The position numbers and the translations under genes were made by a program. A stretch of DNA of 64,000 bases from a virus. Lineage: Duplodnaviria; Caudoviricetes. Under the pieces are notes generated by a model, which saw only the letters and a list, made by a program, of their open reading frames with translations, made no database searches and had not been told where the DNA came from. The DNA is taken from the IMG/VR virus record IMGVR_UViG_3300021060_000011, positions 32,001-96,000 of that record, one strand, 5' to 3'. This document shows, piece after piece, positions 602 to 60,907 of this stretch (its first letter is position 1; each line of letters begins with the position of its first letter).

Positions 602-847
602 CTACACGACGCCCATCATGCGGGCGGTCTCGGTCTCGGTGAACGGGTCGAGATCGGGGCGGTAGCCAGAGGCCAGAGGACGGACGGTGGCATTGCCGGC
701 ATCGTCTTGCCCCACAACAAGCGTGTTGCCGAATGCTACAAAGCTGGCGAACCGCTCCGCGATCCGGGTCAGCGCGTCGGGATCGGCTTCCGGATACATG
801 GATCGAGCGCGATCAAGACACGCAAGGCGAACTTCTTCGATGCGCAT
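602..847 (-). CDS. Hypothetical protein
   Basis: ATG (MRIEEVRLAC) overlaps the terminase stop codon. Confidence 0.6.
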   Translation of the reverse strand: MRIEEVRLACLDRARSMYPEADPDALTRIAERFASFVAFGNTLVVGQDDAGNATVRPLASGYRPDLDPFTETETARMMGVV

Positions 848-2211
848 CAAACCCTCCATGACCCCTGAGACGCCGTTGCCGAGGAATAGCCGGTCTTGGG
901 CTTGGGCGCGGGCGCCGCAGGCTTCGGGTGGATGCCGCAGTTCACGGCCCACTCACCAAAAGCGTCGGCCCCGTGGCTGTTCTCGTCGTGCAACGGGGTC
1001 TGATAGGTCTGCATCTGGTCGTTCCAGCGCCGGGAGTAGCGCCGAAGCCGAGAGAGGCCGATCTGCACCCGCTTGGTGTTGTTGAACGACACGATGGGCA
1101 GGACCCGCCGCACCGCGTTGATGCGCTCGGAAGCGCCCTGTTGCGCGCCGGCCTGGATCGGCCGGACTCCCAGCGCCATGAGCGTCTGGAACCGCGTCCG
1201 CGCCCCGCCGCCCCATTCCCGCACATTGACGTCGTGCGGCAGGAAGTGGCGGCCGTAGGTGAACGGCTTCCCACGTCCGATCTCGGCGAGCCCCGCCAAC
1301 CGCTCGGCAGGCTCCGGGATCAGCTCCGGCATGCAGGCCCGAACGATCTGTTCGGCCCCGTCGCCGCTCACCTCGTAATAGTCGATGGCCCTGGCCGAGC
1401 GCCCGTCGTCCTGCATGAACCAGACGGCGGTGTAGTCGTCCACGCCGATGTCCCAGGCCGTCTTGACCGGGACGTTGGGCAGATACGGGAAGTCGCCGAT
1501 CCGGCCCGCCCGCTCGGCTTCCGCGAGCATCTTGGCGTAGTAGGCGCCTTCCGTGACGACCTGATATCCGCCGCCCCAGACGTGGTCCGCCTGCTCCTGA
1601 TCAGCGGCGTAGTCGTCGTTCTTCTCGTCCCGGAGTTCCGCCGGAAACCACGGGTTGTCGTACCAGTTGACCTCGATGAACACCGAATTGCTCGGCGGGC
1701 TCGGCCCGCGTGCGAGCTTGTCGATGGCGTCGGTGTCGAAACGCGGGTTCCACGAGAACCACAGCTCGGACCCAGGCTTGCGGATCGTCGGGCGCAGCAT
1801 CCGCAGCGAGTGCGCGGACAGCGATTGCGCCTCTTCCACCCACGCGATGTCGTAGCCTTCCAGCGACTTGATCGTGTCGGCGTTGTAGCTCTGCATCCCT
1901 CGGAAGATGATCAGCGAGCCGTGCGGGCCACGGATCTCGCTCTCAAGGATCTCGAAATAGGCGCCGACGCCGAGCTTGCTGATCTTGTCGGCGAGAAGCT
2001 GCTTGACCGACTCCTTGAGGCTGTTCTGCACCTCGCGGATACACACCGCGCGGGTCGTGCCAGAGAAGCACCGAGCGATCAGTTGCTCGCCGAAGAAGTG
2101 CGACTTCCCCGAACCGCGCCCCCCGTAGGCGCCCTTGTACCGCTTGGGCGCCAGAAGCGGAACGAACGCCTCGGCGATCTCAATCGGAAGGGCGGACGAC
2201 GCGCCATTCAA
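847..2211 (-). CDS. terL: Terminase large subunit, PBSX/Terminase_3-like (headful type)
   Basis: Walker A YGGRGSGKS, Walker B IAWVEEA, WNP motif, nuclease WDIG and HGADAF. Confidence 0.93.
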   Translation of the reverse strand: MNGASSALPIEIAEAFVPLLAPKRYKGAYGGRGSGKSHFFGEQLIARCFSGTTRAVCIREVQNSLKESVKQLLADKISKLGVGAYFEILESEIRGPHGSLIIFRGMQSYNADTIKSLEGYDIAWVEEAQSLSAHSLRMLRPTIRKPGSELWFSWNPRFDTDAIDKLARGPSPPSNSVFIEVNWYDNPWFPAELRDEKNDDYAADQEQADHVWGGGYQVVTEGAYYAKMLAEAERAGRIGDFPYLPNVPVKTAWDIGVDDYTAVWFMQDDGRSARAIDYYEVSGDGAEQIVRACMPELIPEPAERLAGLAEIGRGKPFTYGRHFLPHDVNVREWGGGARTRFQTLMALGVRPIQAGAQQGASERINAVRRVLPIVSFNNTKRVQIGLSRLRRYSRRWNDQMQTYQTPLHDENSHGADAFGEWAVNCGIHPKPAAPAPKPKTGYSSATASQGSWRV

Positions 2212-2626
2212 TGGCTTGCACCTTGATGGGAGCGCCGTTCGGCCCGGAAATCTCGCTGGTGATCTTGTCGCCGTACTTCTTCGGCGCCGCCTTCGACATC
2301 AGCCACTTGCGCGTATCGACCCGGAGGCGCGAGCGCTGGATATGTTCGGCATCGACTGTCTCGCTGCCATCCGCGCGCTTCTTCGTGTCGTGCGTGCCGT
2401 CGTCGGCTATCTCAACGATTTCGTCAGCCCAGAGATCGGCCTGCGCCTCGCGCGCGAGCGTGTATTGCTCCCGAAAGGCTTCGTCGCCAGCGAGCCACCG
2501 AAACACCATCGACTGCGACGGCATCTCGTCCTCACGGCAGATCGCACGAAGCGTCTCGCCTTCCGCAAGCCGCTGGCAAATCGTGTCGGCGAGTTCAGGG
2601 GTAAAGCTGGAGGGCCTTCCGGTCAT
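2180..2626 (-). CDS. terS: Terminase small subunit (Sf6 gp1-like)
   Basis: GRPSSFTPELADTICQRLAEGETLRAIC HTH and RLRVDTRKWLMSKAAPKKYGDK motif; directly upstream of terL. Confidence 0.88.
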   Translation of the reverse strand: MTGRPSSFTPELADTICQRLAEGETLRAICREDEMPSQSMVFRWLAGDEAFREQYTLAREAQADLWADEIVEIADDGTHDTKKRADGSETVDAEHIQRSRLRVDTRKWLMSKAAPKKYGDKITSEISGPNGAPIKVQAIEWRVVRPSD

Positions 2627-2700
2627 GGATTGGTGTCTCTTAGACCCACCGCCGCATCATCGTAGCCACAAACCCCGCGACCATCGTCACCGCGACGAAC

Positions 2701-2919
2701 TCAGCGAGGGCGGAGGTCATGGGACAGAGGGAAAAGAGGCTGACAACGGTCTGCCATCTCGCGCATCTCTCTAGCTTGCCGAAGCTGAATGGGATCGGGC
2801 TCGTGATACACCAGCACGCCGTGACACAGATGGACGTGGTCGCCCTCAACGCGCTTGATGCCGACGATTGCGGCCATGGCGTCAGCGACGATCTGCGGGG
2901 CGAAGCCGCCTGTGTTCAC
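2701..2919 (-). CDS. Hypothetical protein
   Basis: GTG start overlapping the stop of the upstream ORF. Confidence 0.45.
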   Translation of the reverse strand: MNTGGFAPQIVADAMAAIVGIKRVEGDHVHLCHGVLVYHEPDPIQLRQAREMREMADRCQPLFPLSHDLRPR

Positions 2920-3149
2920 TCCCCCACCGCCATACGGTCGGATGAGGGTTTGGGACGGGCCAGTGAAGCATCGTCTGCGGATCGGTCGGGACTTGCGATC
3001 ATAATCCGCCCATTGCTCTGCTCTACCACGAGACATCCAGTGAAGGGCGGTTCGTATGAGAAGGGCACGGTCTCAGCCGGAAACTGCTGAAGCACCGCGA
3101 TCAGCTCGCCGACCGTGCGGCACTCGACTCGCAACTCGCTGGTGCTCAT
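2916..3149 (-). CDS. Hypothetical protein
   Basis: MSTSELRVEC start preceded by AGGAGAGGTG RBS. Confidence 0.55.
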   Translation of the reverse strand: MSTSELRVECRTVGELIAVLQQFPAETVPFSYEPPFTGCLVVEQSNGRIMIASPDRSADDASLARPKPSSDRMAVGE

Positions 3150-3185
3150 CACCTCTCCTTGCGATCTAGGACGGTGGTGGTGGGG

Positions 3186-3830
3186 ATCGATGCGGGTGGG
3201 GTTCATTCCCAACAGCCGATGGCGAAGCGGCTTGACGGTTTGGTCGCCACCCCGATCAGGCGGCTCTGGACTGGCCCTCGCAGGCTCAGGAGCTACCAAC
3301 TTCGGGTGTCACAGGGTTTTCGTTCATCCCCTGCCGCATCGAACTCAAATCTTGCGCCCGCCAGTAGAGGCTTGCCAGGGCGGGCGTCGCCCTTCCGAGG
3401 TGAAGCCTCGGCGCACCCGTGTCTGGCGCTTTCGTCCAGCCGTGATGCGAGGTTTGTATCGATGCGGGGCTTGGCGCATGGCCCCATTCAACCCGACACC
3501 CCGGAGTCAACCAACGTCGGGCACCTGCCGCATCGAACTCGTGTGCCGCGTGGCGGCGAAACTTGGTGCTCAGGAGGGCGGGAGAAACCCTGCTGCATCG
3601 TCTCCGATGCCCTGGCTGATCCCCTCGCTTCGGTCTTACCTCCCGACCGGGGCTGAGAGCTTGGGAATTGTAGTGAGGCATCCCCGAAGGGATTTCAGCG
3701 TCGCTGCCTATCGGGCGAACCCGGCCTCTGAAGCAGGAACCGGCTCCCGGTCCTGATTGCCCTGCGGAGCGACCCGCTGGGCGGTCTGTTGATCCTCTTG
3801 AGCGGCGGGCTGACGCACAAATCGCCACTC
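3186..3830 (-). ncRNA. Putative structured non-coding late leader made of stem-closed domains
   Basis: No credible ORF; 17-nt direct repeat cctgccgcatcgaactc at 3330-3346 and 3524-3540, each pairing with an upstream tcgatgcgg (3187-3195, 3459-3467); many hairpins. Confidence 0.45.
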
Positions 3831-3839
3831 TGATAGCTT

Positions 3840-3870
3840 CACCATCCCATAGTCAGGACTCGCCGTCAAC
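3840..3870 (-). promoter_or_regulatory. Putative late promoter (pR'-like)
   Basis: TTGACG on the minus strand right after the stop of the last early gene; -10 weak. Confidence 0.35.
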
Positions 3871-3874
3871 ACCT

Positions 3875-4486
3875 CTACGCCCAGGCCCGATGAAGACTGT
3901 TGAGGGCCACGCGCAAGCTGCCGATCTCAGCCTCGTTCTTCGGAAAGCGCGCCATGACACCCACCGAAACTAGGGCCGATGACGCCGCCGCCCACTCCCC
4001 CGTGTCGCACAACGCGGTCTGTGCTTCGTGCCACTGCGCCTTGAGCTTCTGCGCGTCTTCAAAGCTCATGTCCTTCGCCGTGGTGATACCGCCGGCCACG
4101 TCGTTGATGGCTTGGCTCGGGAACTTCGGTAGGTGCCCGGTGACGTGGTGAGCATAGCGCAGATACAGCTCCACGTACCGATTGCCGGCGGCGAGCTGGT
4201 CCAGGCTCAACACCTCCGTGAGGTAGAGGACGCCGAGGGGATAGCCGGCTTTCGGATCGCGTTCCTTCAGCTTCGGGTCGAGGCGCTTGGACTTCGCTAC
4301 GGCCTTGCGGTGGGGATGGTTCAGGGCGACGCGCAAGGCTTCCTCCTCGCTCTCTCGTTCGATGGCGGCGGCCAACCGCTGTCGGCCCTTCACGGTGGTC
4401 TCCCGCTGCGCCTGGCCGTTCTTCTCCCTCGCCCGTGGGACGATGCGGAGGCTCTTCACCTTCTCGGCGGTGTTCGCGTAGGCCAT
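3875..4486 (-). CDS. Hypothetical protein in the late-regulator (Q-like) position
   Basis: Last gene of the leftward early operon; function inferred from position only. Confidence 0.55.
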   Translation of the reverse strand: MAYANTAEKVKSLRIVPRAREKNGQAQRETTVKGRQRLAAAIERESEEEALRVALNHPHRKAVAKSKRLDPKLKERDPKAGYPLGVLYLTEVLSLDQLAAGNRYVELYLRYAHHVTGHLPKFPSQAINDVAGGITTAKDMSFEDAQKLKAQWHEAQTALCDTGEWAAASSALVSVGVMARFPKNEAEIGSLRVALNSLHRAWA

Positions 4487-4523
4487 GGGGGTGTCCTGTA
4501 CGGGGGAGAGGGTTAGGCGGCGA

Positions 4524-4799
4524 TCACTCAGGGCGACCGGCGAGGCCGCAGTAGCCATCGGCTGAGTATTTGCCGATCCGCTCGTCTTCCGGCTCGCGTT
4601 TGTCTCGGTTCTCGTGGTGAACGCGCTTGCGCCAAGCCATGCATGCAGAGCCCTGACACTTGGAGCCCTTCAACTGCCCGGCGCCATCTGCATCGACCAG
4701 CTTATTGCCAGCCGATGGGATGACTTCACCGAGAGATGTTTGCGTGACGACCCTGGCGAACGGGCACCACTTGGTCTTCGCTTCTGTCTCGGTCATCAT
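4524..4799 (-). CDS. Cys-containing phage hypothetical protein
   Basis: MMTETEAKTKWCPFARV...CQGSACMAWR...GYCGLAG. Confidence 0.65.
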   Translation of the reverse strand: MMTETEAKTKWCPFARVVTQTSLGEVIPSAGNKLVDADGAGQLKGSKCQGSACMAWRKRVHHENRDKREPEDERIGKYSADGYCGLAGRPE

Positions 4800-4947
4800 C
4801 ACGAGCGTTCCTTCGGTCCAAGGGCATAAGCGATGCCGTAGAGAAACACGCCGACCCAAAAGGCAGGCACCGGGTTCGTACTGATCCAGTTGAGAACGTC
4901 GATCATGCCGGCCCCCCATTCATCCAAGTCGGGTGCGTTTCCCAGTT

Positions 4948-5154
4948 TCACCTCTCGTCAGCATTCGCATACCGCTTCGGCGCGCCCTCGGGCTTGAGGC
5001 GGACGTGGATGCGGAAGCGTAGACGTTCAGACACTTCGCCAGCGCCGTTGCGCGAAGCTGCATCGGCCGCATCTCGCGTGAGGTGATAGTTTCGTCCGAT
5101 GGGGCCGGCACCAAAGTCGTATTGGTTGGTCCACCACTCTCTCATCTCACCCAT
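4948..5154 (-). CDS. Hypothetical protein
   Basis: Packed ORF with GGAG RBS. Confidence 0.5.
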   Translation of the reverse strand: MGEMREWWTNQYDFGAGPIGRNYHLTRDAADAASRNGAGEVSERLRFRIHVRLKPEGAPKRYANADER

Positions 5155-5380
5155 GGCTGTCCGCTCCTACCTTCGCGTCAGAAGAGGTTTCCGGCAGGGT
5201 GGCGAACCGACCACAACGGGTGCAGACTTCACCGACGTAGGTGTGGCGACGAAAGCCATCCAAGAGGTCGCCCGTCATTTTGGTGATGTTTTCGGGAAGT
5301 ATCGCCTCGCTAGTGCTGTATCGAGGCTCAAACGAACACCCGCCGATCCACTTATTCCGGCGCTCGCATACTTCGGTCAT
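5147..5380 (-). CDS. Hypothetical protein (CxxC)
   Basis: Overlapping start/stop with neighbours; CTRCG motif. Confidence 0.55.
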   Translation of the reverse strand: MTEVCERRNKWIGGCSFEPRYSTSEAILPENITKMTGDLLDGFRRHTYVGEVCTRCGRFATLPETSSDAKVGADSHG

Positions 5381-6087
5381 TGCTCCGCTCCTACCTTCGC
5401 CTTACGGGCGGCTTCTGAGGCGGCGAGACGTTCGGCGAGCGCCTTGTTCTCGGCGGCGCGCTCAACGGCAGCGGCCTGCCCCTCGACCTCGCGGGCATCA
5501 CGCATCTTGGCGGCGCGCGCAGTCTCGGCCACGAACTCGTCGTAGCGCCGTGCGACCTCGGCCCGTTCCTCGTCAGTGGGGAGCGTGTAGACCTCGGCGT
5601 CGAGCACAGCGTTGATCTTGGCGCGCTCTTCCTGCGCTGCAGCGAGGAACGAACGGCACACCGCCGCGATCTCACCCGGCTTCGGTGCGTGGATGCCCTG
5701 CCCGCTCGTGCCGTCAAGGAACTGCATGCAGGCCCGCTCGACAGCCCAAGCCGGAAACTTCGTCAACACGGCGAGGTAGGCTTGCCGTTGAAGCTTCTGC
5801 GTCTCCAAATCGACTGTAGGGGCCGCCATGACGCTTCGGAGCATTCCGACCGACCGTCGCACCACCGCGGCGTCGCAGCCCGCCAGAGCCCCGTCCAGGG
5901 CGTTTCTACGGCCTATCAGAAGCGCACGTTGCTCCTCGCTCGGCTCATAGGCCGCCGACAAGGCGCAACGGCGGAAGTTGCCGGGGATCGTTTCCAGCAG
6001 ATTGTGGAGCATCCCGGTAAGGTCGGCCGTCCGCCTGTCGGCCGGCGCGATCCCAGTTCCGGTGGTGGTCGTGAGAGCCGTGGTCAT
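5377..6087 (-). CDS. Putative replication accessory (helicase-loader position)
   Basis: Follows the initiator; FPAWAVERAC...APKPGEI pattern typical of P-position genes. Confidence 0.55.
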   Translation of the reverse strand: MTTALTTTTGTGIAPADRRTADLTGMLHNLLETIPGNFRRCALSAAYEPSEEQRALLIGRRNALDGALAGCDAAVVRRSVGMLRSVMAAPTVDLETQKLQRQAYLAVLTKFPAWAVERACMQFLDGTSGQGIHAPKPGEIAAVCRSFLAAAQEERAKINAVLDAEVYTLPTDEERAEVARRYDEFVAETARAAKMRDAREVEGQAAAVERAAENKALAERLAASEAARKAKVGAEQ

Positions 6088-6904
6088 CGTGGCCTCCCTG
6101 CATTTCGGTGTTCGCGTCTAGGGCGTCAGCGGCCCAGAAATCAGCGGCGGGTGGACGGCCAGTCGGCGTCCTCCGTTTCGCATCGCCTGGCGGCGCAGGC
6201 TGATCGGCCCAACGTCCTTGGTTCAGCCACACCGCGGGGCCGACCCAGTCGTAGTGCTCGGGCTTCGTCGCGATGTACCGGCGCAGCCCGTCCATCAGCT
6301 CGGCGAAGGTGGCGAGCTTCTGTTTCCGAACTCGGTTGAAGGATTTTTCGGCCGCAGGCTTGGCAACCTTGTTCGGCTGGACGCCCCACCAGATGTCGAA
6401 CGCACCCTCGGGGAAACCGTCATCAACCAAAAGAGGAAGAGGCGTAGCCTCTTTCTCTACTGTCTTGTCTAGTCTTCTCTCGTCTTTTAGGCTTGAAACG
6501 TCATTAAGCGCCGCTTGACCCGCATCGTTATTTTCCAATGGGTTAGAGGTGCGGCCGCTCTCGTTTTTCCCAGCTTTCTCACGAAAAGCGCGGGTTTTTC
6601 CGCCTTTTCCAGCGTTTTCTCGGTTTTTCTCAACAAAACGCAGCTCTACGGCGGCGCGAGCGTTGCAGATCCGGCCATCGTGCATGGTCAATTTGCCGGC
6701 CGCCAGAAGCTCGGCGAGGGCCTTCGTGAAAGCCTTCACGGTCATGTTGCAGCGACCGGCGATGCCCCGGTCGTTCGGGGTGATCGGGCCTTCGTTCAGC
6801 ATGATGAGCTGAACGACGACGTGGTAGGCGCGATAAGCCGCGTCGCTGAGGTTCTCGGTCCCGTCCATCCACGCGGGGATGTCGTGCTTGTAAAAGCCAA
6901 CCAT
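5945..6904 (-). CDS. Phage replication initiator, DUF1376/YdaU-like
   Basis: N-terminal FYKHDIPAWMDGTENLSDAAYRAY; C-terminal FDIWW...PAVWLNQGRW. Confidence 0.8.
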   Translation of the reverse strand: MVGFYKHDIPAWMDGTENLSDAAYRAYHVVVQLIMLNEGPITPNDRGIAGRCNMTVKAFTKALAELLAAGKLTMHDGRICNARAAVELRFVEKNRENAGKGGKTRAFREKAGKNESGRTSNPLENNDAGQAALNDVSSLKDERRLDKTVEKEATPLPLLVDDGFPEGAFDIWWGVQPNKVAKPAAEKSFNRVRKQKLATFAELMDGLRRYIATKPEHYDWVGPAVWLNQGRWADQPAPPGDAKRRTPTGRPPAADFWAADALDANTEMQGGHDDHGSHDHHRNWDRAGRQADGRPYRDAPQSAGNDPRQLPPLRLVGGL

Positions 6905-7491
6905 CAGCCACGCTCCATGAACTCAAGGATTTCGTCAGCGCAGCCAGCGGGGTCGCTCCAGATCTCTGACCCCGTGAAGCGGAGAATTGGGAGACCCTCC
7001 AACTGAGCGACGCGATCTCGGGAGCGGTCTCGCGCAGCTTGCTCCTTGGTCCGCTCGTGATACGCATGGCCGTCGCACTCAACGATGAGACGCCGAAGGA
7101 TCGGGTAGCCATTCTCATCGTGGCCGCCGGCATCAGCGGGGTAGTGCAAAACGAAATCGACACGCCAGCCGGCAATCTGCACCTGCTTTTCGATGAAAGC
7201 CGTCATGCCGATGCGACCCATGATGCTTTCGCCGTTATGCGCCTTCTCAAGCGGGTAATCCCTGCCGCCAGGCAGACACCCTTTACCGAACCGTGAGACG
7301 GCGACGATGCAGCGGTTCTCCCGGTGCGCGCAGATGACGAGTGCCGCGTACAGAAGGTGCTCGATAGGACTCTCGCCCCACGGCTGATCGCGGACCATCA
7401 TCACATGACGATAAGCAAGCTCAGCCTCTTCCTGCGCAAGGAGATCAAAACCGCCGAGCCGACCCGTGCGGCGCTTGTCGTTGTCGCTCAT
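6904..7491 (-). CDS. DUF559/Vsr-like endonuclease domain protein
   Basis: ESPIE, WRVDF, LIVECDGHAYH, RDRSRDR, ILRFTGSEI motifs. Confidence 0.85.
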   Translation of the reverse strand: MSDNDKRRTGRLGGFDLLAQEEAELAYRHVMMVRDQPWGESPIEHLLYAALVICAHRENRCIVAVSRFGKGCLPGGRDYPLEKAHNGESIMGRIGMTAFIEKQVQIAGWRVDFVLHYPADAGGHDENGYPILRRLIVECDGHAYHERTKEQAARDRSRDRVAQLEGLPILRFTGSEIWSDPAGCADEILEFMERG

Positions 7492-7724
7492 CGCCCGATA
7501 GCCTGTGAGACAGAGTTGATGTGAGCCTGCATGGGTTCCGGAAGGGCCTGGAGGGCACGCAGAGCGGCGGGGACACGGGTCTCGTCTCTCATGGCAGCGA
7601 AGACCGCGTTGCAGGCGTCTTGAGCCTCCAGAGGGCAGACAGCGCGAATGTCGTTGAGGCTGGAGACGCGGCGCTCCCATGGGCGGCGGGCGTCGAAGGC
7701 GGGATGATCGCGGAAGGGGGTCAT
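7488..7724 (-). CDS. Hypothetical protein
   Basis: ATGA overlaps on both sides. Confidence 0.55.
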   Translation of the reverse strand: MTPFRDHPAFDARRPWERRVSSLNDIRAVCPLEAQDACNAVFAAMRDETRVPAALRALQALPEPMQAHINSVSQAIGR

Positions 7725-8590
7725 GCGGCTTCCCTCTTGGCGAGAGAGGCAAGAATTGCGTGGCCGATCAGCTCTGGGATTTGCGGGACGACCGCGTTGC
7801 CAAGTCCCCGCAATCGGTCCACCCGATTGGGAACCCCATGAGCCACTCGACCCACGTCGGGTTCAGTGCTCCACTCCCCGTCTCCGACCTCACTGCGTCC
7901 GGCAAACTGTCGGGTAAGCGGCCGGCTTCTCTCCGTGCCTTCGACAAGGTGGACATTTTCACCCCATCCGAGGCCAGCGGAGTAGGCCACAGGCGCACTT
8001 GCATCGCCAAGCCGATCTCCCGACCGGCGGCCAACCTGCGACGGATCGCCGGCAACTGAGCGTCCAATTTGTCCCCGTCCGTTGCGAGTGGCGTATGCCA
8101 CAAGCCAAAGGCGGTCCCTGCGGTGAGGGGCACCAACGGCAGAAGCTGGTATGCAATGCCACTCAGCATCATACCCGAACGCGGCCAATTCCCCGAGAAC
8201 TCGGTCAAGCCCGCGATTAAGCAGTGCTGAGACGTTTTCCACGAGTAGGAAGGCAGGTCGAATTTCGCCAACAAGACGGGCGATTTCAGACCATAGGCCC
8301 GAGCGCGTTCCTTCGGCGATCCCCGCTCCTGCACCGGCAAAACTGATGTCTTGGCAGGGAAAGCCTCCGCAGATGACATCCACGCAAATCCCATCTGCGC
8401 GGAGACGTTCGGCGGTGAGGGTTCGCACGTCTTCATAGCAGGGCACCTCAGGCCAGTGCTTCGCCAGCACACGACGGGGGAAGGGTTCGATCTCGCAGAA
8501 GGCGACGGTCTCAAAACCGCCGGTCCGCTCAAGGCCGAGGCTGAAGCCGCCGATGCCGCTGAAAAGGTCGAGGACGCGCAGCTTGCTCAC
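7721..8590 (-). CDS. C5-cytosine DNA methyltransferase, alpha chain (lacks motif IX)
   Basis: Motif I LDLFSGIGG, IV GGFPCQ, VI ENV, VIII HRRDR, X LGNAVVP. Confidence 0.9.
   Translation of the reverse strand: MSKLRVLDLFSGIGGFSLGLERTGGFETVAFCEIEPFPRRVLAKHWPEVPCYEDVRTLTAERLRADGICVDVICGGFPCQDISFAGAGAGIAEGTRSGLWSEIARLVGEIRPAFLLVENVSALLNRGLDRVLGELAAFGYDAEWHCIPASAVGAPHRRDRLWLVAYATRNGRGQIGRSVAGDPSQVGRRSGDRLGDASAPVAYSAGLGWGENVHLVEGTERSRPLTRQFAGRSEVGDGEWSTEPDVGRVAHGVPNRVDRLRGLGNAVVPQIPELIGHAILASLAKREAA
7768..8379 (-). CDS. Nested alternative-frame beta chain of the C5 methyltransferase (TRD plus motif IX); start uncertain, ORF open to 8532
   Basis: LW(H/P)TPLA(T/S)D repeats and LNPTWVEWLMGFPIGWT in a different frame inside the alpha gene. 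Confidence 0.75.
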   Translation of the reverse strand: MSSAEAFPAKTSVLPVQERGSPKERARAYGLKSPVLLAKFDLPSYSWKTSQHCLIAGLTEFSGNWPRSGMMLSGIAYQLLPLVPLTAGTAFGLWHTPLATDGDKLDAQLPAIRRRLAAGREIGLAMQVRLWPTPLASDGVKMSTLSKARREAGRLPDSLPDAVRSETGSGALNPTWVEWLMGFPIGWTDCGDLATRSSRKSQS

Positions 8591-8729
8591 AGGCGCCCTT
8601 CCGGGATTTGAGCGAGGGCTTTCGGAAGACGGCGCAGTGCTTCCGCCAGTGCAGCCACAAGGGTCTCCGGATCGGCATCCCAAGTGATGTCAGCGATGTC
8701 CTGGAGGGTGTCGCGGATCTCGTCTTCGG

Positions 8730-9134
8730 TCATGCGGATGTAGCCTCCGTTTTGCGGGCACGCTTCGGCTTCGGCTCAATGCGGGGGATGAGATCGGCTG
8801 CGGTCACGGTGACGACGGCGCCTTGGACGCCAGTAGCCCAAGCGAGATCAATGGCCTGACAATCGCTGTCGTTGCGCACGGCGCCACAGGACTGAAGGAG
8901 GTCGTTGACGGGTTTCAGGTAGTTGTCGAGATCGAGGCGCCGGCCAGTCATGCAGCCGACCCGAAGCGACAGCGCGTAGGGACCGTCGATACGCTTCCCG
9001 GCGGCAGCCACGTTCAGGATCAGGCCGGCGCTCGCCTTCCATGCCTCATAGGCCGGAGCGATGTGAACCCGGTTCCTGGCCTTGCGCCACATGCGGTTGG
9101 CTGAAGGAGGCAAGGGGAGTGTGGCGCAGATCAT
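8730..9134 (-). CDS. rusA: RusA-family Holliday junction resolvase
   Basis: LPLPPSANRMW, DLDNYLK, NDSD motifs. Confidence 0.85.
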   Translation of the reverse strand: MICATLPLPPSANRMWRKARNRVHIAPAYEAWKASAGLILNVAAAGKRIDGPYALSLRVGCMTGRRLDLDNYLKPVNDLLQSCGAVRNDSDCQAIDLAWATGVQGAVVTVTAADLIPRIEPKPKRARKTEATSA

Positions 9135-52320: not shown

Positions 52321-52348
52321 AAAAGAAAAGGCCGCCTCGCGGCGGCCT
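52321..52348 (-). terminator. Intra-operon intrinsic terminator just upstream of the sheath gene
   Basis: aggccgcc-gcga-ggcggcct hairpin followed by TTTTCTTTT on the minus strand. Confidence 0.65.
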
Positions 52349-52380
52349 CATGGGTTGGGTCTGGGAAGGGCTTGGGGCGG

Positions 52381-53390: not shown

Positions 53391-53797
53391 CGGATCTCCG
53401 CCAGCATGACGAGGGCGCGGCCGAAGTCGACGGCCTTGAACCGGGTGACGGTGAAGCGCTCGCCGGTGTCGTCTCGGCGGACGATGTCTCCCAAGTGCGG
53501 CCGCTCCAGGAGCGAGTGCAGATCGACATCCACCATGGGCTGCTCGGCGACGACGCCGCGCGTGGTGGAGTCGGTCATGGCGCGGCCATGGGCGTGGAGC
53601 ACGGCGCCGGCCGCGATCCAGACGCCCTGGAACGGGTAGCTCACCCGGATCGTGCTCGGCACGGTCCCGGCGTTGACGTCGACGCGGCCCGCCGTGGTGG
53701 CGGGCCGCGCGCGACCTTCGATGGTGAAGCCTTCTGCGAACACGGCATCGACTGTCGCCGAAGCGGCTGAGGCTAGGGCGGCAAAGAGCGAGGGCAT
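53387..53797 (-). CDS. Head-tail joining protein
   Basis: Position after the capsid gene; FII-like size. Confidence 0.6.
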   Translation of the reverse strand: MPSLFAALASAASATVDAVFAEGFTIEGRARPATTAGRVDVNAGTVPSTIRVSYPFQGVWIAAGAVLHAHGRAMTDSTTRGVVAEQPMVDVDLHSLLERPHLGDIVRRDDTGERFTVTRFKAVDFGRALVMLAEIR

Positions 53798-53823
53798 GTC
53801 GCGGAAGGCCTATCGTTCGAGGG

Positions 53824-54852
53824 TCAGTTGACCTTGGCGCAGAAGCTCGCGTTCACGCGGGACGGCACCACCAGGGGGGCCGACTCGGAGTAGGCGTTGC
53901 GACGCGAGGGGTTCTCGGTGTCGTAGACCTTGCGGAAGATCTCCTGGGGCACGAGCGACGCGACATCCTGGATGGCGCCGAACGCACGCACGCCCTCGAT
54001 CGCGGGCGAGCCCATGATGACGTTGAAGTCATCGATGAACCGCTCGGAGGTGCCGTCGCCCTGCTCGAAGCTCTGCTGGTAGACCCAGAACTCGAAGTCG
54101 CCGATGGCACCGACGTAACGGGCGCGGGTGACGTCGTCGGGCTTGATCGGACCGAGCTCGACGTTGCCGGTGGCCTGACGGCGGACGTCGAGGACCTTGC
54201 GGAAGTCTTCGTCCTGGCGGGCGAGCTTCCAGGCGCCGCCGCCCAGTACCACCATGCCGGGGGCGATGCCGCACTTGTCCTGCGTGGCCTGGGCCCAGGT
54301 CTCGATGCTGTCGAGCGGCTTCACGCCAGCCTGACCCCAACGGTTCGCGCCGGTCAGAGCCACGGAGAGGGATTCGTGCCGCTCGTAATCAACCACCTGG
54401 GTCGGATAGTCCTCGCCCTCGACCTTGACCTTACCGAAGCGCAGGGCCTGGGCCGCCATCCACTCGAGGCGGTAGAGCACGGCGCGCTCCTGGGCGGCGA
54501 GCACGTCCACCATCACGGCGTCCATGCGCTCCACCGGGCTCATGTCGCCCGAGTAGCGCTCGCCGGCCATGCGCTTCATGGCGCGGCCGGGCTTCACCAC
54601 CTCGAGGAGCTTCACGTTGGCCGGCTTGAAGCTCTTCGTGATGTAGCCGCCGGAGTTCGTCGGCTTGGCCGAGGCGTCCGGATGGACGAACGGCGCGAGC
54701 TTGCGGCCGGTCTTGATCAGGTCGAAGTCGATGGTCTCGGTGTCGAAGTTCTGCACCGTGGAGAAGAACAGATCGAGCAGGAAGGTCGACGGGGTGTCGA
54801 TCCGCTCGTCCATGACGCGGGCGAGCGTGTGGGTGTCATAAACCAGGCTCAT
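53824..54852 (-). CDS. Major capsid protein, lambda gpE family
   Basis: FLLDLFF, KLAPFVHP, RLEWMAAQAL..GK, AFGAIQD, ESAPL. Confidence 0.92.
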   Translation of the reverse strand: MSLVYDTHTLARVMDERIDTPSTFLLDLFFSTVQNFDTETIDFDLIKTGRKLAPFVHPDASAKPTNSGGYITKSFKPANVKLLEVVKPGRAMKRMAGERYSGDMSPVERMDAVMVDVLAAQERAVLYRLEWMAAQALRFGKVKVEGEDYPTQVVDYERHESLSVALTGANRWGQAGVKPLDSIETWAQATQDKCGIAPGMVVLGGGAWKLARQDEDFRKVLDVRRQATGNVELGPIKPDDVTRARYVGAIGDFEFWVYQQSFEQGDGTSERFIDDFNVIMGSPAIEGVRAFGAIQDVASLVPQEIFRKVYDTENPSRRNAYSESAPLVVPSRVNASFCAKVN

Positions 54853-54953
54853 GACGGGCTCCGGATAGCGATGTCGGGGGATGGTCGGGCGGCCAGCCTC
54901 GGGGCAGGCGCATGTCACGGCACGGGCGGCTCACGGCCGCCCGGCCGGTCGGA

Positions 54954-55328
54954 TCAGAAGGTGGTCAGGCCGAGCGGCTTGCGCAGGAACAGGGGCGTTC
55001 CCTCGAAGGCGATGCGGACGTCCTCGGCCGAGAAGCTGGGGTCGATCACCAGCATGTCCGGGTTGAAGACGCCGGCCTTGTAGGTCGGGCCCACAGCGTC
55101 CGCGGCGGAGGCATCGACGTCGGCGACCGCGATGCCGACGGGCTTCTGGGAGCCGTCGGTCGCGGTCTTCACCGCCTTCTTCAGCTTGCCGGTGGCCGTC
55201 ACCCGGCCGACCACGGTGAGAGCCGCGACGAGGGCGCCGGTGAGGAAGGTCTCGGGCTCGGAGTAGACCGGCATGGTGCCGGTGATCAGGGCCTCGGGGC
55301 GGTAGGTGTTGGTCTCGTTGAGGGCCAT
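54954..55328 (-). CDS. Head decoration protein (lambda gpD-like)
   Basis: DGSQKPVGI, YKAGVFN; upstream of the capsid gene. Confidence 0.82.
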   Translation of the reverse strand: MALNETNTYRPEALITGTMPVYSEPETFLTGALVAALTVVGRVTATGKLKKAVKTATDGSQKPVGIAVADVDASAADAVGPTYKAGVFNPDMLVIDPSFSAEDVRIAFEGTPLFLRKPLGLTTF

Positions 55329-55395
55329 GGTGGCTCACTCCTGGTTCTCGGCGCACCGCGCCAGGGATCGGTGGGGTTGGGCCGCGACCTGCAGC

Positions 55396-56583
55396 TCAGC
55401 GCGCGGCGGCGTCGGCCCGGGTGCGGCCGCCGGCCTTGCGGTAGGCGGCGACGATGCCGCCCGCCTTGTCGTCCTTGGCCGTGCTGCCGCCGCCGTGATG
55501 GCCACCGGCCGGGCTCGGCTTCGTGGAGGCCTGCGCGGCCGCCATGGCGTCGATCAGGGCGTCCTTCGCCACCTCGAGGTTGCTCGCCTGGGCCACGATC
55601 CCGTTGAGGGTCGCGAGGCCGAGGCCGGACTTCTCCGCAGCGGTGAAGAACTGGACGGACCAGGCCTTGGGCGCCGACGCCACGGGGGCGACCGGCTCGG
55701 GCTTGGTCTCGGGCGGCGTGGCGCCGGCGGCTGCGGCGGCCGCAGCTTCGTCGGCGGCCTTCTTCGCGGCGACCGCCTCGGTCATGCTGGCCTTGGCCGC
55801 GTCGAGGCCGTCGGCCTTGGCGACGATGTCGAGCAGGGTGACGATCGACAGGTTGGACTCGCCGGCGGCGGCGAAGAAGTCGGTGGCCCAGGCCTTCGGC
55901 GCGGGGGTCGGGGCGGGCTTCACGTCGGACATGGGGGGTTCCTTCTCGGCCGCGGAGGCCGTTGCCGCTGGAGCGGCCTGAGGCTTGAACCGGCTCGGGA
56001 GGCCCTTCGGGGCGCGCGCGTAGAGCCGATAGTTGAAGCTGGCGGTGGGCTCGGCGAGGCTCTCGGCCTTGCCGGTGACGAGACCCTGCGCGACCGCCTC
56101 GTCGGCGGTGAACCAGGTCTCGGCGCGCATCAGGCTGCGCACCTCTTCGCGCTCCAAGCCCGAGCGCGCGGCGTAGATGCCGGCGTACTGGTCGGAGAGC
56201 TTGTCGAGGACGGTGGCGTCGCGCTGGTGGTCGGCGGCGGTGCCGAAGGTCAGCCCGGCGGCATCGTGGATCATCACCATCGCGCCGTCGCGCATCTCGC
56301 GCGTGTCGCCCGCCATCAGGATCAGCGAGGCGGCCGAGGCCGCTATGCCGTCGACGATGACGTGCACCTTGCCCTCGTGGGAGCGCAGGAGCGAGTAGAT
56401 CGCGACGCCGTCGAAGGCGATGCCGCCGCCCGAGTTCAGCCGGACGGGGACGTCGCCAGGGCCGTGCTCGGCCAGGGCGGAGGCCACGTCGGTGACGGTG
56501 AAGCCGTCACCCCAGCAGTAGGGGTCGCCGACGTCGCCGTAGAGCAGGATCTCCCCGTTAACGAGGAGGCTGGGCTTGTCCAT
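55396..56583 (-). CDS. ClpP-like head maturation protease fused to scaffold
   Basis: LNSGGG, DGIAASAASLI, MIHD, AETWFTADEAV. Confidence 0.9.
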   Translation of the reverse strand: MDKPSLLVNGEILLYGDVGDPYCWGDGFTVTDVASALAEHGPGDVPVRLNSGGGIAFDGVAIYSLLRSHEGKVHVIVDGIAASAASLILMAGDTREMRDGAMVMIHDAAGLTFGTAADHQRDATVLDKLSDQYAGIYAARSGLEREEVRSLMRAETWFTADEAVAQGLVTGKAESLAEPTASFNYRLYARAPKGLPSRFKPQAAPAATASAAEKEPPMSDVKPAPTPAPKAWATDFFAAAGESNLSIVTLLDIVAKADGLDAAKASMTEAVAAKKAADEAAAAAAAGATPPETKPEPVAPVASAPKAWSVQFFTAAEKSGLGLATLNGIVAQASNLEVAKDALIDAMAAAQASTKPSPAGGHHGGGSTAKDDKAGGIVAAYRKAGGRTRADAAAR

Positions 56584-58081
56584 CGGGCTTTGCCTTGGAG
56601 GGGGGCGGCATGGCCGCGTTCATCGGGAAGCGCCCGTCGCTGTCGAACCGCGTCCCCGCCTGGTCGGCGCGGGCGTTGTCCTCGGCGATTTCGGCTTCGA
56701 TCAGCTCCGGGTCGTGCCCGAGCTTGCGTTGCTCCTCGGAGCGGGACGACAGGCCCGACCGGATCGCATCGCGTGCGGCCTCGATGTCCTCGCTCGGCTT
56801 GATCATCTCGCGCCGGGGCGGGGTCCATTCGAGGGTGGCGCTGGTCGGCCCGTTGAGTGAGACCGTTGCGGCTTCGAGGAACCATCGGCCGATCCCGACA
56901 CAGAGGTGCGGGATCAGCATGTGCCAGCGCCACATGTCGATGGAGCGCTGGAACTCCAGCCAGCCGAGGCGGCCGGAGGAGAAGTTGACCTGGCTGAGGT
57001 CGTTGCTGAGCAGCTCGGCCGGCACCCCGAACCCGACGGCGATCTTGCGGATCTGCGCCCGGGTGTATTCGGGATAGCCCTGGGTCACGGGCGGAGTGGC
57101 GAACTTGACGTCCGAACCGCCCGTCAGCCGGGTGACGAGCCCCGGCTCGAGCATATCGACGGGGTTGCCGCTCTCGGTCGGCTTGATGCTGCCGTCAGCG
57201 TTGAAGGCGGGACCGGTCTCCGTCTTGTCCATCCAGAAGACCGCGAAGCACGCAGCGATCTTCTGGCGCATCAGCTCGGCGTCCTCGTAGTCGCCGAGGT
57301 CCCAGAGCGTCATCACGATGGGGGCGGCCCACGGAATACCGCGGGCCTGCCCGGGCCGATCCACCCGGTAGAGGTGGATCACATCCGACGCGGGCACCCG
57401 CTGCGAGGCGCCGAACCGGCGGTACGACACCCCATAGGGGTGTTCGGGGTAGAGCCAGTAGGCGACGCGGCGGCCGCGACGATCGAACTCGATGCCCTGG
57501 AAGCAGATGTTGCCGCCGCCGATCGGCCCGTGCTTGTTCGGGTCGAGGTAGTCCGGCTCCAGCACCCGCACCTGCAGGGGTACCTTCAGGCCGAGGCTGG
57601 CCTCGGGCAGGTACCGGACGACGAGGGCCTCGCCGCTCTCGACCACCGTCCGGATGGCGAGCGCCTGGATGCCGTAGAGGTTGTTCCGGCCTTCGAGGTC
57701 GATATCGGTGGTGTCGAGGTGCTCGCGGATGAGGCGTTGAAGCGCCTTCTTCTCCCGCGCCTTCGCGCCGATGACCGATGGCAGGATGCCGGTGCCCACG
57801 ACGTTCGAGGCGATCCCGGACACGGCCCGGGTCGCATAGGGGTTGTTCCGGGCCAGATCGCGCGACACGTCGCGGAGGCGGCCGAACGAGTAGAGGACCT
57901 CGGCATTCGCGTCCGAGGTCGAGATCTGGCGGCCGGCGGTGCGGTGGGTGCGGGCGGCGCCGTCGTAGAGGGCGGTCGCCCGGCGGATGCCCTCGGTGCG
58001 GGCGCGCGCCTGGACCCGGGCCTGCTCGCGCCGCGGCGAGACCCATCCGATGGCGCGGTCGAGGAGGTTGGGTCCTGCCAT
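56558..58081 (-). CDS. Portal protein, lambda family
   Basis: RDLARNNPYA, GIEFD..GR.VAY, RPGQARG, VNFSSGR. Confidence 0.93.
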   Translation of the reverse strand: MAGPNLLDRAIGWVSPRREQARVQARARTEGIRRATALYDGAARTHRTAGRQISTSDANAEVLYSFGRLRDVSRDLARNNPYATRAVSGIASNVVGTGILPSVIGAKAREKKALQRLIREHLDTTDIDLEGRNNLYGIQALAIRTVVESGEALVVRYLPEASLGLKVPLQVRVLEPDYLDPNKHGPIGGGNICFQGIEFDRRGRRVAYWLYPEHPYGVSYRRFGASQRVPASDVIHLYRVDRPGQARGIPWAAPIVMTLWDLGDYEDAELMRQKIAACFAVFWMDKTETGPAFNADGSIKPTESGNPVDMLEPGLVTRLTGGSDVKFATPPVTQGYPEYTRAQIRKIAVGFGVPAELLSNDLSQVNFSSGRLGWLEFQRSIDMWRWHMLIPHLCVGIGRWFLEAATVSLNGPTSATLEWTPPRREMIKPSEDIEAARDAIRSGLSSRSEEQRKLGHDPELIEAEIAEDNARADQAGTRFDSDGRFPMNAAMPPPSKAKPDGQAQPPR

Positions 58082-58086
58082 CGGCG

Positions 58087-58290
58087 TCAGGACAGGTTGG
58101 AGCGGTAGCCCGCCACGTAGCGGTTGGGCTGCCCGCGGCCGGTGACCTCGGCCTGCATGCCGGCGAGGATCGACCGCATCTCGGCGAGGGTGCGGTAGGT
58201 GACCTCGCGGTTGTCCGCGAAGCGCACCTTGGTCGCGCCCGTCGCAATCGCCGCCTTGAGGGCGGCGATGTCCTTGTCGGTGTAGGCCAT
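58087..58290 (-). CDS. gpW-like head-tail joining protein
   Basis: ALKAAIATGA..V.F..R.V.YRTL.EM. Confidence 0.85.
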   Translation of the reverse strand: MAYTDKDIAALKAAIATGATKVRFADNREVTYRTLAEMRSILAGMQAEVTGRGQPNRYVAGYRSNLS

Positions 58291-58317
58291 GGGAAGCCTT
58301 TCGTGCTTCGGCGCCGG

Positions 58318-60414
58318 TCAGCGCCGCAGGAACCCCCGACGCTGACCCAGGAAGCCGCCCGACTGTGCGGGCGCTTCTGCGGGCGGGGGTGGGGCCGCTG
58401 GGGTCGGGCGCAGAGCCACGACCGGGGCGGGCTTGGGCGGTGGTGCCTCCGCCGCGAGGGCGGGGTTCTCAGCCTCAGGAACCGCGGCGGGTGCGGGGGG
58501 CGGTGGTTCGGCACCGCTCTCGACCCTGAGGCGCTCGACGCCGATCATCTTCGCGGCGCCGTAGGCCAGGCATTCGGCGTCGAGGTAGTGGTTGTGCCGG
58601 GACCGGCGCAGCCACATCGACCCGCCGCTGGGTTTCCGCACGCGGGCCTCGGACACGATCTGGCGGCAGAAGTCCTCTGTCGCGTCGAGCGGCAGATGCC
58701 AGCCGCCGGGCTGATCCTGCGGCCACCGGATCCGGGAATGGACCCAGGACTTCAGGACGTCCGTGTCGAGCCGGACGAGGTCGAGCCCGTAGGACGGCTT
58801 GCCGCCGACCGGGGTGACGTCGATGCGGTTGACCGAGAGCGGCACCGACCGATGGTCGTAGCCCTTCGTCGGGTAGACGTGCCGGGCGTGCCGACGGCAG
58901 AATTCATAGACCGTGTTCTCGTCGCCGGCGTCCTTCTTGCCGGGACGGAAGCCCGCGTCGATGAAGACCCGGCGGATCGGCAACCCGCCGATGCCGTTCT
59001 CGATCAGCTCGGCCAGCTCCATCCACACATCGTCGAGACGCGTGTCGTGGTTGTCGCCGAACATCTCGCCGTGCTCGATGAGCCAGGACTCGTTCCGAGC
59101 GCCCCAGCCGCGCACCACGTAGACGAGCCGGTCCTTCTGGACGTCGACGCCGCAGGTCAGCAGCAGCACGCCGGCCGGGATCTCGCGGAAGTGGTAGGGC
59201 AGGCGGCGATCGCGCACCTCCTCCCACTCCGGCGCGTCGCCGCCGCTCGGCATCCACAGCTCGCCGAAAGCCGCGTTCACGACCGTCTGGACCTTCTCAG
59301 GGTCGCCGGTCTGGATCGCCTCGACGTAGCGGGCGGCGCGGTCGCCGAAGCTCTGGAACGGCGAGCACAGGCCCGATGCCCAGAGCGACCACGTATCACT
59401 CGCCGGCGGCTCGCCCGTGACGTTGTCGTTTTCGTCGACGTGCTGACCGGGGGCCACCTCGAGGCCGGTCTTGCAGATCGCCTCTTTCTCGTCCTCGGTG
59501 ATGATGCAGCCGTGGTTCGGGCAGACGAGGTGCGCCGTCTCCTTGGCCCGGGCCGGCGTGGTTTTCGCCTCCTCGCCCTTGTGCTCGTACTCCAGGCACG
59601 AGAGGCGCGGCACGAACCGTTCCTCACAGTGAGGGCAGCGCCAGGTCCAGTGGTATCGGGTGCCCGCCTGCCAGTATTTCCAGATGGTCGATTCGATGTC
59701 GTCGGCCGGCTGGACCTTCCAGAACTCCAGGCCCGAGACCTCGTCCTTCTCGGTTTCCTTCGGCCCGCGCGAGGTGGTCGAGACCATCGCGTGCACGAAG
59801 TCGGCGTGGGTGTCGCCGCGGGCGTCGATCAGGCCGATCGGATCGCCCTGCCCTTTCACGTTGGCCATCAGCTCGTCGGCCTCGTCGGTGAGGGCGAGCG
59901 AGGCCGGGTCCGATTTCAGGGCCGTGGACGAACCGGCGTGCGCGAGGCGCAGCGGGACGCCGGCGATCACCTTGCGGGTCTTCGTCATCCGCTTGCCGCG
60001 GGCGACCTTGGCCGCGAGGGTGGGCGCCTCGTCGAGCAGCGCCATGATGCGCGGCTCCCACTGCTCGGTGATGAACTGCTTGTTCGGTCCGACGTACAGG
60101 ATCGGCGCTGGCTGCTGGTCGAGCCGCTGGCCGATCACGTCGAGGATCGTCTCGGACTTCCCGCTCTGGGCCGAGACCACGAAGACGCAGCGCTTGTGCC
60201 GGCGCCTCGCGATCGCTCGTCCGAAGGGCACCCCGTAGGGGGTCAGGTAGGGGTTGCGCTTGCCTGGATAGCCGGAGCTGGGCGGATAGACCCGGTTCTC
60301 GGCACCCCAGACGTCAGGCATCGTCCTCTTCTGAGGGCGGATCAGCGTCGCGGTCCGCGCGTAGAGCCGCGCCGCATTCCGCGATGCGGTCGGCCACGGA
60401 TTGGAGAGCGTCAT
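58318..60414 (-). CDS. Terminase large subunit, lambda GpA family (start may be 60321)
   Basis: SAQSGKSE, LTDEAD, CPHC/CPNHGC, GVDVQ, NHYLDAE. Confidence 0.93.
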   Translation of the reverse strand: MTLSNPWPTASRNAARLYARTATLIRPQKRTMPDVWGAENRVYPPSSGYPGKRNPYLTPYGVPFGRAIARRRHKRCVFVVSAQSGKSETILDVIGQRLDQQPAPILYVGPNKQFITEQWEPRIMALLDEAPTLAAKVARGKRMTKTRKVIAGVPLRLAHAGSSTALKSDPASLALTDEADELMANVKGQGDPIGLIDARGDTHADFVHAMVSTTSRGPKETEKDEVSGLEFWKVQPADDIESTIWKYWQAGTRYHWTWRCPHCEERFVPRLSCLEYEHKGEEAKTTPARAKETAHLVCPNHGCIITEDEKEAICKTGLEVAPGQHVDENDNVTGEPPASDTWSLWASGLCSPFQSFGDRAARYVEAIQTGDPEKVQTVVNAAFGELWMPSGGDAPEWEEVRDRRLPYHFREIPAGVLLLTCGVDVQKDRLVYVVRGWGARNESWLIEHGEMFGDNHDTRLDDVWMELAELIENGIGGLPIRRVFIDAGFRPGKKDAGDENTVYEFCRRHARHVYPTKGYDHRSVPLSVNRIDVTPVGGKPSYGLDLVRLDTDVLKSWVHSRIRWPQDQPGGWHLPLDATEDFCRQIVSEARVRKPSGGSMWLRRSRHNHYLDAECLAYGAAKMIGVERLRVESGAEPPPPAPAAVPEAENPALAAEAPPPKPAPVVALRPTPAAPPPPAEAPAQSGGFLGQRRGFLRR

Positions 60415-60802
60415 CGATCTGCACCTGCAGGCGTTCGCGCTCGTCGAGATCGCGGGTGAAGCGGGCCGGGACGTTGTTCACCTGTAGGGCGACCTCGCCC
60501 GCCACCCGGTCCATCGCGTAGATCGCGTCGGTGAGGGGGACGAGCTCGCGCTCCTCGCGGGCGAGCTTCAGCTCCTCGCGTTTGGTCTTGATGTCCTTCA
60601 GCCGGTCGGCGCCCTTCAGGTCGCTCCGATCCTGCCGGGCCGTTTCGCTTTTGACCTTGTGCTCGATGTAGGCCTGCACGCATTCCGGCAGGAGCCATTC
60701 GCCATGGCTCAACTTCCGGAAAACTCTCGCATTCGCAAGCTGTTGGACCCGCCGGGCGGAGACGCCGAGGATCTCCGCGAGGTCGGCTGTGGAGACCTCC
60801 AT
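60314..60802 (-). CDS. Terminase small subunit, Nu1-like
   Basis: VSTADLAEILGVSARRVQQL winged HTH plus coiled coil. Confidence 0.85.
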   Translation of the reverse strand: MEVSTADLAEILGVSARRVQQLANARVFRKLSHGEWLLPECVQAYIEHKVKSETARQDRSDLKGADRLKDIKTKREELKLAREERELVPLTDAIYAMDRVAGEVALQVNNVPARFTRDLDERERLQVQIDDALQSVADRIAECGAALRADRDADPPSEEDDA

Positions 60803-60814
60803 CGGGCAACCTCA

Positions 60815-60907
60815 AAGCGAAAGCGAAATCGAGAAATCGAAAACCCGAAATACGCGCAGAACCCGGGGTCTATTGCCCGCAGAGGGGGAGTGACCTGGGA
60901 AGGACCC
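60815..60907 (-). other. Putative lambda-like cos site
   Basis: Minus strand GGGTCCT (identical to lambda cosQ) at 60901-60907, then GGGCAATAGACC 22 nt later, then TTTCG repeats before Nu1. Confidence 0.6.

Follow-up and report, generated by a model that had tools for sequence, protein, structure and literature searches.

Phage P1 lives as a plasmid prophage and carries the Cre/lox system together with HumD, a homologue of UmuD'. Phage-plasmids of the repABC type have already been described in Roseobacter and Sinorhizobium. LM21 combines a complete phage genome with a plasmid replication and partition system (PMC5537653), and work on Tritonibacter reported the same plasmid backbone with different phage cargo, the phage part having chromosomal relatives. 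Here we analyze a window of 64,000 nucleotides (nt), bases 32001 to 96000 of the 125,103-bp IMG/VR virus record IMGVR_UViG_3300021060_000011, in which a repABC replicon lies between two unrelated packaging or virion modules. An initial annotation read this window as one lambdoid gene order and proposed either a phage-plasmid encoding two virion types or a cointegrate of two phages. The complete record and an independent assembly suggest that the window probably straddles two temperate phages, each complete and independent, that belong to a single Methylobacterium-like host population: phage A, a podovirus-like phage with an integrase, and phage B, a candidate repABC phage-plasmid.

Both are ordinary, known kinds of element. 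B resembles P1 in its Cre-like tyrosine recombinase, its UmuD-sized S24 protein and its separate plasmid-maintenance and lytic functions, but its replicon is repABC rather than RepA/ParAB, its virion genes are unrelated, and its GpA terminase is of the cos rather than the pac type; no lox-like site was identified in B. Set beside the described repABC phage-plasmids, B, which is known from sequence, has a Methylobacterium-like host, a GpA terminase, a lambda head and a Mu-type tail, and its repABC genes occupy exactly the int/att slot. A shares with the P22/Sf6-like podoviruses a P22-family portal, an Sf6-type small terminase (TerS), a pectate-lyase-fold tailspike, a CI-type S24 repressor between divergent operons, the RecT, NinB and RusA proteins, and an integrase with attP in a tRNA 3' end. 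It differs from them in being distant in sequence, in its target, tRNA-Ser(CGA), and in the position of int after integration, at the end far from the intact tRNA. As in lambdoid mosaicism and cointegrate formation, a patch of perfect identity amid diverged operons offers A and B a substrate for module exchange or cointegration; here, however, only the shared patch is seen, and a recombinant molecule can at most be inferred.

A shared repeat and the layout of the record

Genes were called with a codon-usage model, about 120 products were then scanned against Pfam, and RNAs were checked with Rfam. IMG/VR classes the record as linear, with a CheckV completeness estimate of 100%, and a search for terminal overlap on the 125,103 bp found none. 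The record reads X-R-Y-R, where X is contig 1-51646, R is a repeat of 798 bp and Y is contig 52445-124305 (Table 1). The second copy of R, 100% identical to the first, makes up the final 798 bases of the contig. R begins within a 440-amino-acid (aa) gene, of which it holds the last 98 codons, covers a 152-aa gene completely and takes in 19 codons at the start of the gene that follows, and the final base of the contig is the final base of R, 57 nt into that following gene. We rejected a provirus-trimming artefact as the origin of the left contig end; the right end is intragenic and falls exactly at the end of R, as de Bruijn contigs end.

On the 5' side of R the two copies have homologous flanks, about 40-60% alike with many gaps, and identity then rises abruptly to 100%. 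Such perfect identity amid diverged flanks implies that A and B recombined recently, and R was the only link between them found in the contig. Base composition and tetranucleotide profile shift at R as well: the guanine-plus-cytosine (GC) fraction is 0.646-0.647 in X and in an alternative branch, Z, that follows R in A, and 0.67-0.71 in Y. The operon stretch just past R, from window 20445, resembles the early genes of B and not A in both GC (0.670) and tetranucleotide profile. At the protein level the two halves have near-zero overlap, with R and a GapR paralogue (51%) in common.

Branch Z was located by an exact search with the last 49 nt of the record. JGI metagenome contig Ga0182232_1002279 (3,730 bp) has as its first 127 nt the last 127 nt of R and then departs from Y; an overlap of this length is expected between adjoining contigs of a de Bruijn assembly with k=127. 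The contig has an X-like GC of 0.647 and carries alleles of the next two genes after R (48% and 51% aa identity to those of B), a minus-strand integrase-like open reading frame (ORF) and a 17-nt core, CCCCCCTCTCCGCCAAT. Neighbors of RecT and of the R genes in IMG/VR were too distant to reveal what succeeds R.

Exact-protein look-ups returned no record for several junction genes and found the ENA MEGAHIT assembly ERZ27250785, which is independent of the assembly behind the IMG/VR record. Its contig k141_599140 is exactly R, 798 bp; k141_119099 (72,143 bp) consists of Y flanked on either side by 141 nt of R, 100% identical over the 20.5 kb compared; and k141_118727 (55,158 bp) runs from the last 141 nt of R through Z, the core and X to the first 141 nt of R. 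The Z arm of this last contig matches the JGI contig at 100% over 3,474 nt, and its X arm matches the left end of the record at 99.97% over 11,358 nt. The assembly graph is two loops with R in common, which the record traverses in the order tRNA-Ser, X, R, Y, R. Because the contig ends at the second R and an alternative branch exists, the X-to-Y join is one of two equally valid walks through that graph. Since k141_118727 runs R-Z-attP-X-R, A (Z+X+R, 55,674 bp) is a self-contained temperate podovirus-like phage that has its own int and attP and a Methylobacterium-like host. B (R+Y) would be a unit of 72,659 bp that closes on itself in the assembly. A repeat common to co-resident phages has in this way yielded a chimeric-looking public "viral genome", a record of 125 kb with a completeness rating of 100% and about 1.9 genomes in it.

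Separate molecules or a cointegrate

We consider it likely that A and B exist mainly as separate molecules. R would most likely have arisen by recent recombination between co-resident A and B; the assembler would then have passed from integrated A through R into B, gone once round B and halted at R, which would create the appearance of a single lambdoid order with two packaging modules. Alternatively, the record may portray a true cointegrate in which B recombined into A at R, giving attL-X-R-Y-R-Z-attR in the chromosome, or a 128-kb circle if excised. Direct copies of R on both sides of Y are the pattern expected of an inserted replicon and the outcome of a single crossover, the perfect identity of R amid diverged flanks points to recent exchange, and A encodes RecT and NinB. 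The same graph, however, is given by two separate circles. Separate molecules are favored because the contig halts at the second R instead of running on into Z, the assembler having no spanning evidence there, and because R stayed unresolved in the independent assembly, where A and B each form a loop. They are favored also because 798-bp direct repeats would readily resolve by recombination, because a unit of 128 kb suits neither the headful size of A nor the cos-to-cos size of B, whose relatives measure about 72-76 kb, and because A and B each, alone, match the size of their relatives. We therefore regard a true cointegrate as unlikely, if by no means negligible.

Several points weigh against our preference. 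Contigs cannot phase a 798-bp repeat, and the graph fits equally a 128,333-bp cointegrate or B recombined into an integrated A prophage. metaSPAdes, a repeat-aware assembler, linked X to Y and gave X-R-Y as one contig, possibly from real spanning pairs. The circular closure of B is visible only through R, which it shares with A, and the plasmid state of B is read from gene content and comparison alone. Finally, the integrase on Z is a weak family match, and it is placed differently with respect to the tRNA core than its homologue in another Methylobacterium genome. Given the perfect identity of R, transient cointegrates are plausible, whereas as the major form they seem doubtful. It is similarly improbable, in our judgment, that a repABC phage-plasmid recombined into a tRNA-integrated prophage is real for a sizeable share of the population; if it were, a single induction could mobilize both A and B, and the headful machinery of A could package or transduce repABC-bearing segments of B.

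A third possibility, one evolved phage-plasmid in which a single regulatory circuit drives two virion modules, was raised by the initial annotation with one SOS switch at its center. Within the 64-kb window the genes do follow a single lambdoid map, and neither an integrase nor an att site can be seen there. The statement that these are missing holds inside the window and fails beyond it: the integrase and attR of A lie on the other branch after R, and the Cre-like recombinase of B lies just to the right of the window. The supposed single order dissolves at the plus-strand "PL operon", which is a composite of A up to 19646, R from 19647 to 20444, and B from 20445, so that the junction falls at window 19.6-20.4 kb and not at the 22-33 kb first suspected. 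A second portal and capsid were looked for to the left of the window, and a P22-family portal and a capsid are present there. The search for a second cI/cro and integrase likewise turned up a second early region with a divergent switch and, off the contig, the integrase of A. No one immunity and early region serves both late modules; there are two early regions, two GapR proteins, two recombinases and separate closures. The whole contig thus holds two full sets of early, immunity and late genes, each virion module having a full genome of its own. A has int, attP, attL and attR and closes without B, B-type backbones occur without A in two relatives (Methylobacterium sp. Leaf99 and the contig G001, both described below), and R is the sole link. 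One replicon with two unrelated particle types, remarkable if true, dissolves once the whole contig and the other assemblies are considered, and we hold it to be extremely improbable. Of the two proposals first made, the two-phage cointegrate fared better: its meeting place and mechanism, early-left operons joined through an identical 798-bp repeat, stand, while a physical cointegrate is only one reading of them. Misassembly at the junction, named at the outset as a refuting outcome, comes near to what was found, in that the contig ends at the second R and an alternative branch exists.

Attachment sites of phage A

A tRNA-Ser(CGA) gene occupies contig 26-115, and the core CCCCCCTCTCCGCCAAT is its 3' end. 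Host chromosome makes up contig 1-115, which matches 146 of 146 Methylobacterium genomes at 90-100%, with homology always ending at the 3' end of the tRNA. A partial tRNA-Ser copy serving as a second att site was sought within the contig, and none was found; the att copy sits on the JGI contig. On k141_118727, attP has the same int-side arm as attR and the same phage-side arm as attL, with the core between them. A is thus a temperate podovirus for which attP, attL and attR have all been captured, and it uses this core to integrate into the chromosome at the 3' end of tRNA-Ser(CGA).

The early-left operon of A ends, on Z, in this tyrosine integrase. In the PDB it matches the Tn1549 Int protein (E 1.7e-4), and family support is weak: the ENA gene call matches PF00589 weakly, and a homologue with 67% nt identity just passes PF00589. 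That homologue (G138:C5:96516-98129) adjoins an intact tRNA-Ser(CGA) in another Methylobacterium genome, on the opposite side of the core from the integrase of phage A and in reverse orientation.

The form retained in the MEGAHIT assembly is attP, whereas the JGI contigs retain attL and attR, from which it follows that excised and integrated forms of A dominate in different data sets or assemblers. Logan unitig SRR7162643_37752 equals contig 101-1871 and begins inside the att core, as expected if the attL and attP forms of A coexist in SRR7162643. Just past the attR core of A (Ga0182232_1002279:3540-3730) a plus-strand ORF starts, with an N terminus that we take to be integrase-like, suggesting that a further element is integrated at this tRNA-Ser site in tandem with A.

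The repABC cassette of phage B and its relatives

B carries repA, repB and repC in that order in one operon, with a ctRNA between repB and repC (Table 1). The palindrome TTGTCAGCTGACAA, of the TTGVCAGCTG type, occurs twice near the repA/repB boundary (window 28459-28472 and 28498-28511), and presumably these copies are parS-like. The cassette is 85% identical in nt to the repABC genes of a Methylobacterium plasmid. NZ_CP099613, the plasmid with the nearest repABC, was considered as a phage-plasmid and rejected, being an ordinary arsenic/Tad plasmid. Y, a 72-kb unit contiguous in two assemblies, carries complete virion, packaging and lysis genes together with those for plasmid replication and partition. 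We propose that B is a candidate phage-plasmid kept by a canonical repABC cassette, presumably in an extrachromosomal state.

Two relatives place this cassette in context. In the chromosome of Methylobacterium sp. Leaf99 lies a prophage collinear with B (large terminase [TerL] 96% aa); the collinear stretch starts at the small gene before S24, spans the lysis, tail, head and terminase genes and reaches the first early-left genes. The prophage has no repABC, and a tyrosine integrase lies at the end of its early-left operon. An exact att repeat was sought in Leaf99 and only an imperfect match was obtained; the insertion was bounded instead through empty sites in three other genomes, relative to which the prophage lies within a 76-kb insertion. 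Since Leaf99 lacks repABC and has an integrase there, repABC in B occupies the int/att slot of the phage lineage. The other relative, the 29.3-kb IMG/VR contig IMGVR_UViG_3300045938_000166 (G001), has a B-type early region joined directly to the same repABC (97% nt; RepA 99.5% aa), with the S24 gene next. It jumps from the end of the lysis genes to codon 96 of TerL (at about 20586-20589), a precise deletion of 26.5 kb that takes out the whole virion module, and ends with the recombinase of B (99.4% aa); it contains no A gene. With repABC, S24, the recombinase and early genes retained at 87-99% identity, G001 resembles a phage-plasmid reduced by decay to a plain plasmid.

In B, repABC would thus maintain the element as a plasmid from the slot where its integrated relative has integrase and att. 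Against G001 and Leaf99, B mirrors both features of the Tritonibacter report. B can be viewed as a candidate repABC phage-plasmid with an integrated sister (Leaf99) and a virion-less sister (G001), and the three document exchange between int/att and a plasmid replicon at one locus, no direction being implied. B might instead not be a plasmid at all, being integrated elsewhere or decaying with repABC as inert cargo; its closest full relative is chromosomal, and G001 shows that B backbones can lose the entire virion module. Against this, no host-DNA junction was found in the 72 kb of Y in either assembly, repA, repB, repC and the ctRNA are all intact, with 97% identity to G001, and the early-left end lacks a lambda-type integrase, having only a Cre/Xer-like recombinase. 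We consider a non-plasmid B very improbable. The recombinase is nearest to Cre and XerC/D among solved structures, with Cre the best PDB match, a likeness that may fit multimer resolution better than lambda-type integration. No serine recombinase was found on the contig.

Gene content of the two phages

Nearly every call in the gene order first listed was upheld by Pfam and Rfam (Table 1). The names "cos" and "Nu1" were positional guesses, the small ORF at the terminase having no family match, and "cro" also rests on position.

Table 1. Coordinates of the repeat, attachment sites, genes and modules of phages A and B
Feature	Location	Strand	Basis or remark
Repeat R, 798 bp	window 19647-20444 (contig 51647-52444); second copy contig 124306-125103	+	exact direct repeat
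attL	contig 99-115		17-nt core shared with attP and attR, exchanged arms
attR	Ga0182232_1002279:3458-3474		same 17-nt core
A virion module: P22-type portal, capsid, pectate-lyase-type tailspike, large unknown proteins	contig 12314-31700, left of window		PF16510, PF13252
A TerL, Terminase_3	window 847-2211	-	PF04466
A Sf6-type TerS	window 2180-2524	-	PF20901
A early-right operon and late leader	window 2525-12865	-	
DUF1376 replication protein	window 5945-6904	-	Pfam
MTES/DUF559 nuclease	window 6904-7491	-	
RusA	window 8730-9134	-	
dUTPase	window 9131-9607	-	
HTH/DnaA_C protein	window 10477-11250	-	
A GapR	window 11812-12183	-	
HTH protein	window 12180-12593	-	
cro-position ORF	window 12596-12865	-	position only
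A repressor, HTH+S24 (LexA/CI type), 249 aa	window 12939-13688	+	weak PF00717; ENA gene call
A early-left operon up to R	window 14523-19646	+	GC 0.647, A-like tetranucleotides; 100% identical on ENA phage-A contig
Gp157	window 15666-16244	+	
RecT	window 16248-17231	+	
NinB	window 17228-17650	+	
SpoU methylase	window 18129-18620	+	
440-aa gene	reaches R at window 19647	+	5' part in A-specific DNA, last 98 codons in R
B distal early-left operon: DUF6440, DUF5131, DUF1643, YfbR-like, others	window 20445-26776	+	runs into repA
repABC replicon	window 27188-30823	+	repA, repB, repC, one operon
repA	window 27188-28408	+	CbiA/ParA
repB	ends window 29439	+	ParB_N+RepB, PF07506/PF02195
ctRNA_p42d	window 29475-29520	-	RF00489, 54.5 bits (gathering 50)
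repC	window 29624-30823	+	RP-C, PF03428/PF11800
Small B genes and UmuD-sized S24 peptidase	window 30943-33469; S24 32203-32658	- (S24)	PF00717
B lysis cassette	window 33792-35425	-	
lysozyme	window 34229-34735	-	
DUF7940	window 34732-35043	-	
DPBB transglycosylase	window 35066-35425	-	
B contractile tail block	window 35491-52308	-	includes fibre/DUF4376 proteins
gp48-like	window 37638-38708	-	
Mu gp43-47-like baseplate	window 41545-46481	-	
tape measure	window 46485-49784	-	
tail tube	window 50321-50683	-	
sheath	window 50767-52308	-	
B head and packaging block	window 52381-60815	-	
gpE capsid	window 53824-54852	-	Pfam
gpD	window 54954-55328	-	Pfam
ClpP protease	window 55396-56583	-	Pfam
lambda-family portal	window 56558-58081	-	Pfam
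GpA terminase (TerL)	window 58318-60414	-	Pfam
candidate small terminase	window 60411-60815	-	position only
genes upstream of B terminase	window 61011-64000	-	extend rightward to Cre-like recombinase and B early region
gpZ-like gene	window 61011-61592	-	weak PF06763 (lambda minor tail protein Z), E 8e-6
N6/N4 DNA methylase	window 62510-63346	-	
B tyrosine recombinase	contig 98126-99091, just right of window		

In A, the P22-family portal (PF16510, E 2e-107) is found together with what is predicted to be a headful-type terminase (PF20901 and PF04466). Its closest portal homologues, 42-46% identical, occur in 3 of the 146 Methylobacterium genomes; PLSDB held no plasmid with a close A portal or a close B terminase, and no phage record gave a nucleotide-level match to B. 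The early-right calls come from our own Pfam scan and from precomputed Pfam annotation of the ENA contig. The CI-type repressor of A sits between the divergent minus- and plus-strand early operons, and its atlas neighbors are clusters of S24 plus helix-turn-helix (HTH) repressors (score 0.97). PDB and atlas searches returned nothing for a 203-aa candidate in A or for the putative repressor of B, and a second lysozyme, for A, was sought without success.

In B, window 20445 onward corresponds to the first bases of the ENA Y contig, the place where the A branch has its 48-51% alleles. The small genes and S24 peptidase beyond repC are part of the phage backbone, outside the plasmid cassette: in the Leaf99 prophage (91% aa), as in G001, this region is conserved beside the lysis genes. 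To the right of the window B has its second early region, with a staphylococcal-type nuclease, an SNF2 helicase, an HTH_36-HNH protein and the second GapR; a divergent switch at about contig 115.3-115.6 kb; and a plus-strand early-left operon that includes a Trans_reg_C protein and a C5 methylase.

Additional observations

An ORF of about 102 aa at window 21500-21808 (plus strand) was missed by the codon-usage gene call; its last 40 nt or so are kept (86-97%) in B, Z and G001, directly before the jump to repABC in G001. ARAGORN reported a "tRNA-???" with a four-base anticodon at window 56193-56289 (plus strand), antisense within the head genes of B and probably a false positive. The gpZ-like gene lies upstream of the B terminase genes, apart from the tail module, and is 96-98% identical in aa in Leaf99 and G001. 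In the early-left region of B, contig 118994-119653 encodes a protein consisting only of the DNA-binding domain of an OmpR/CtrA-type response regulator (PF00486).

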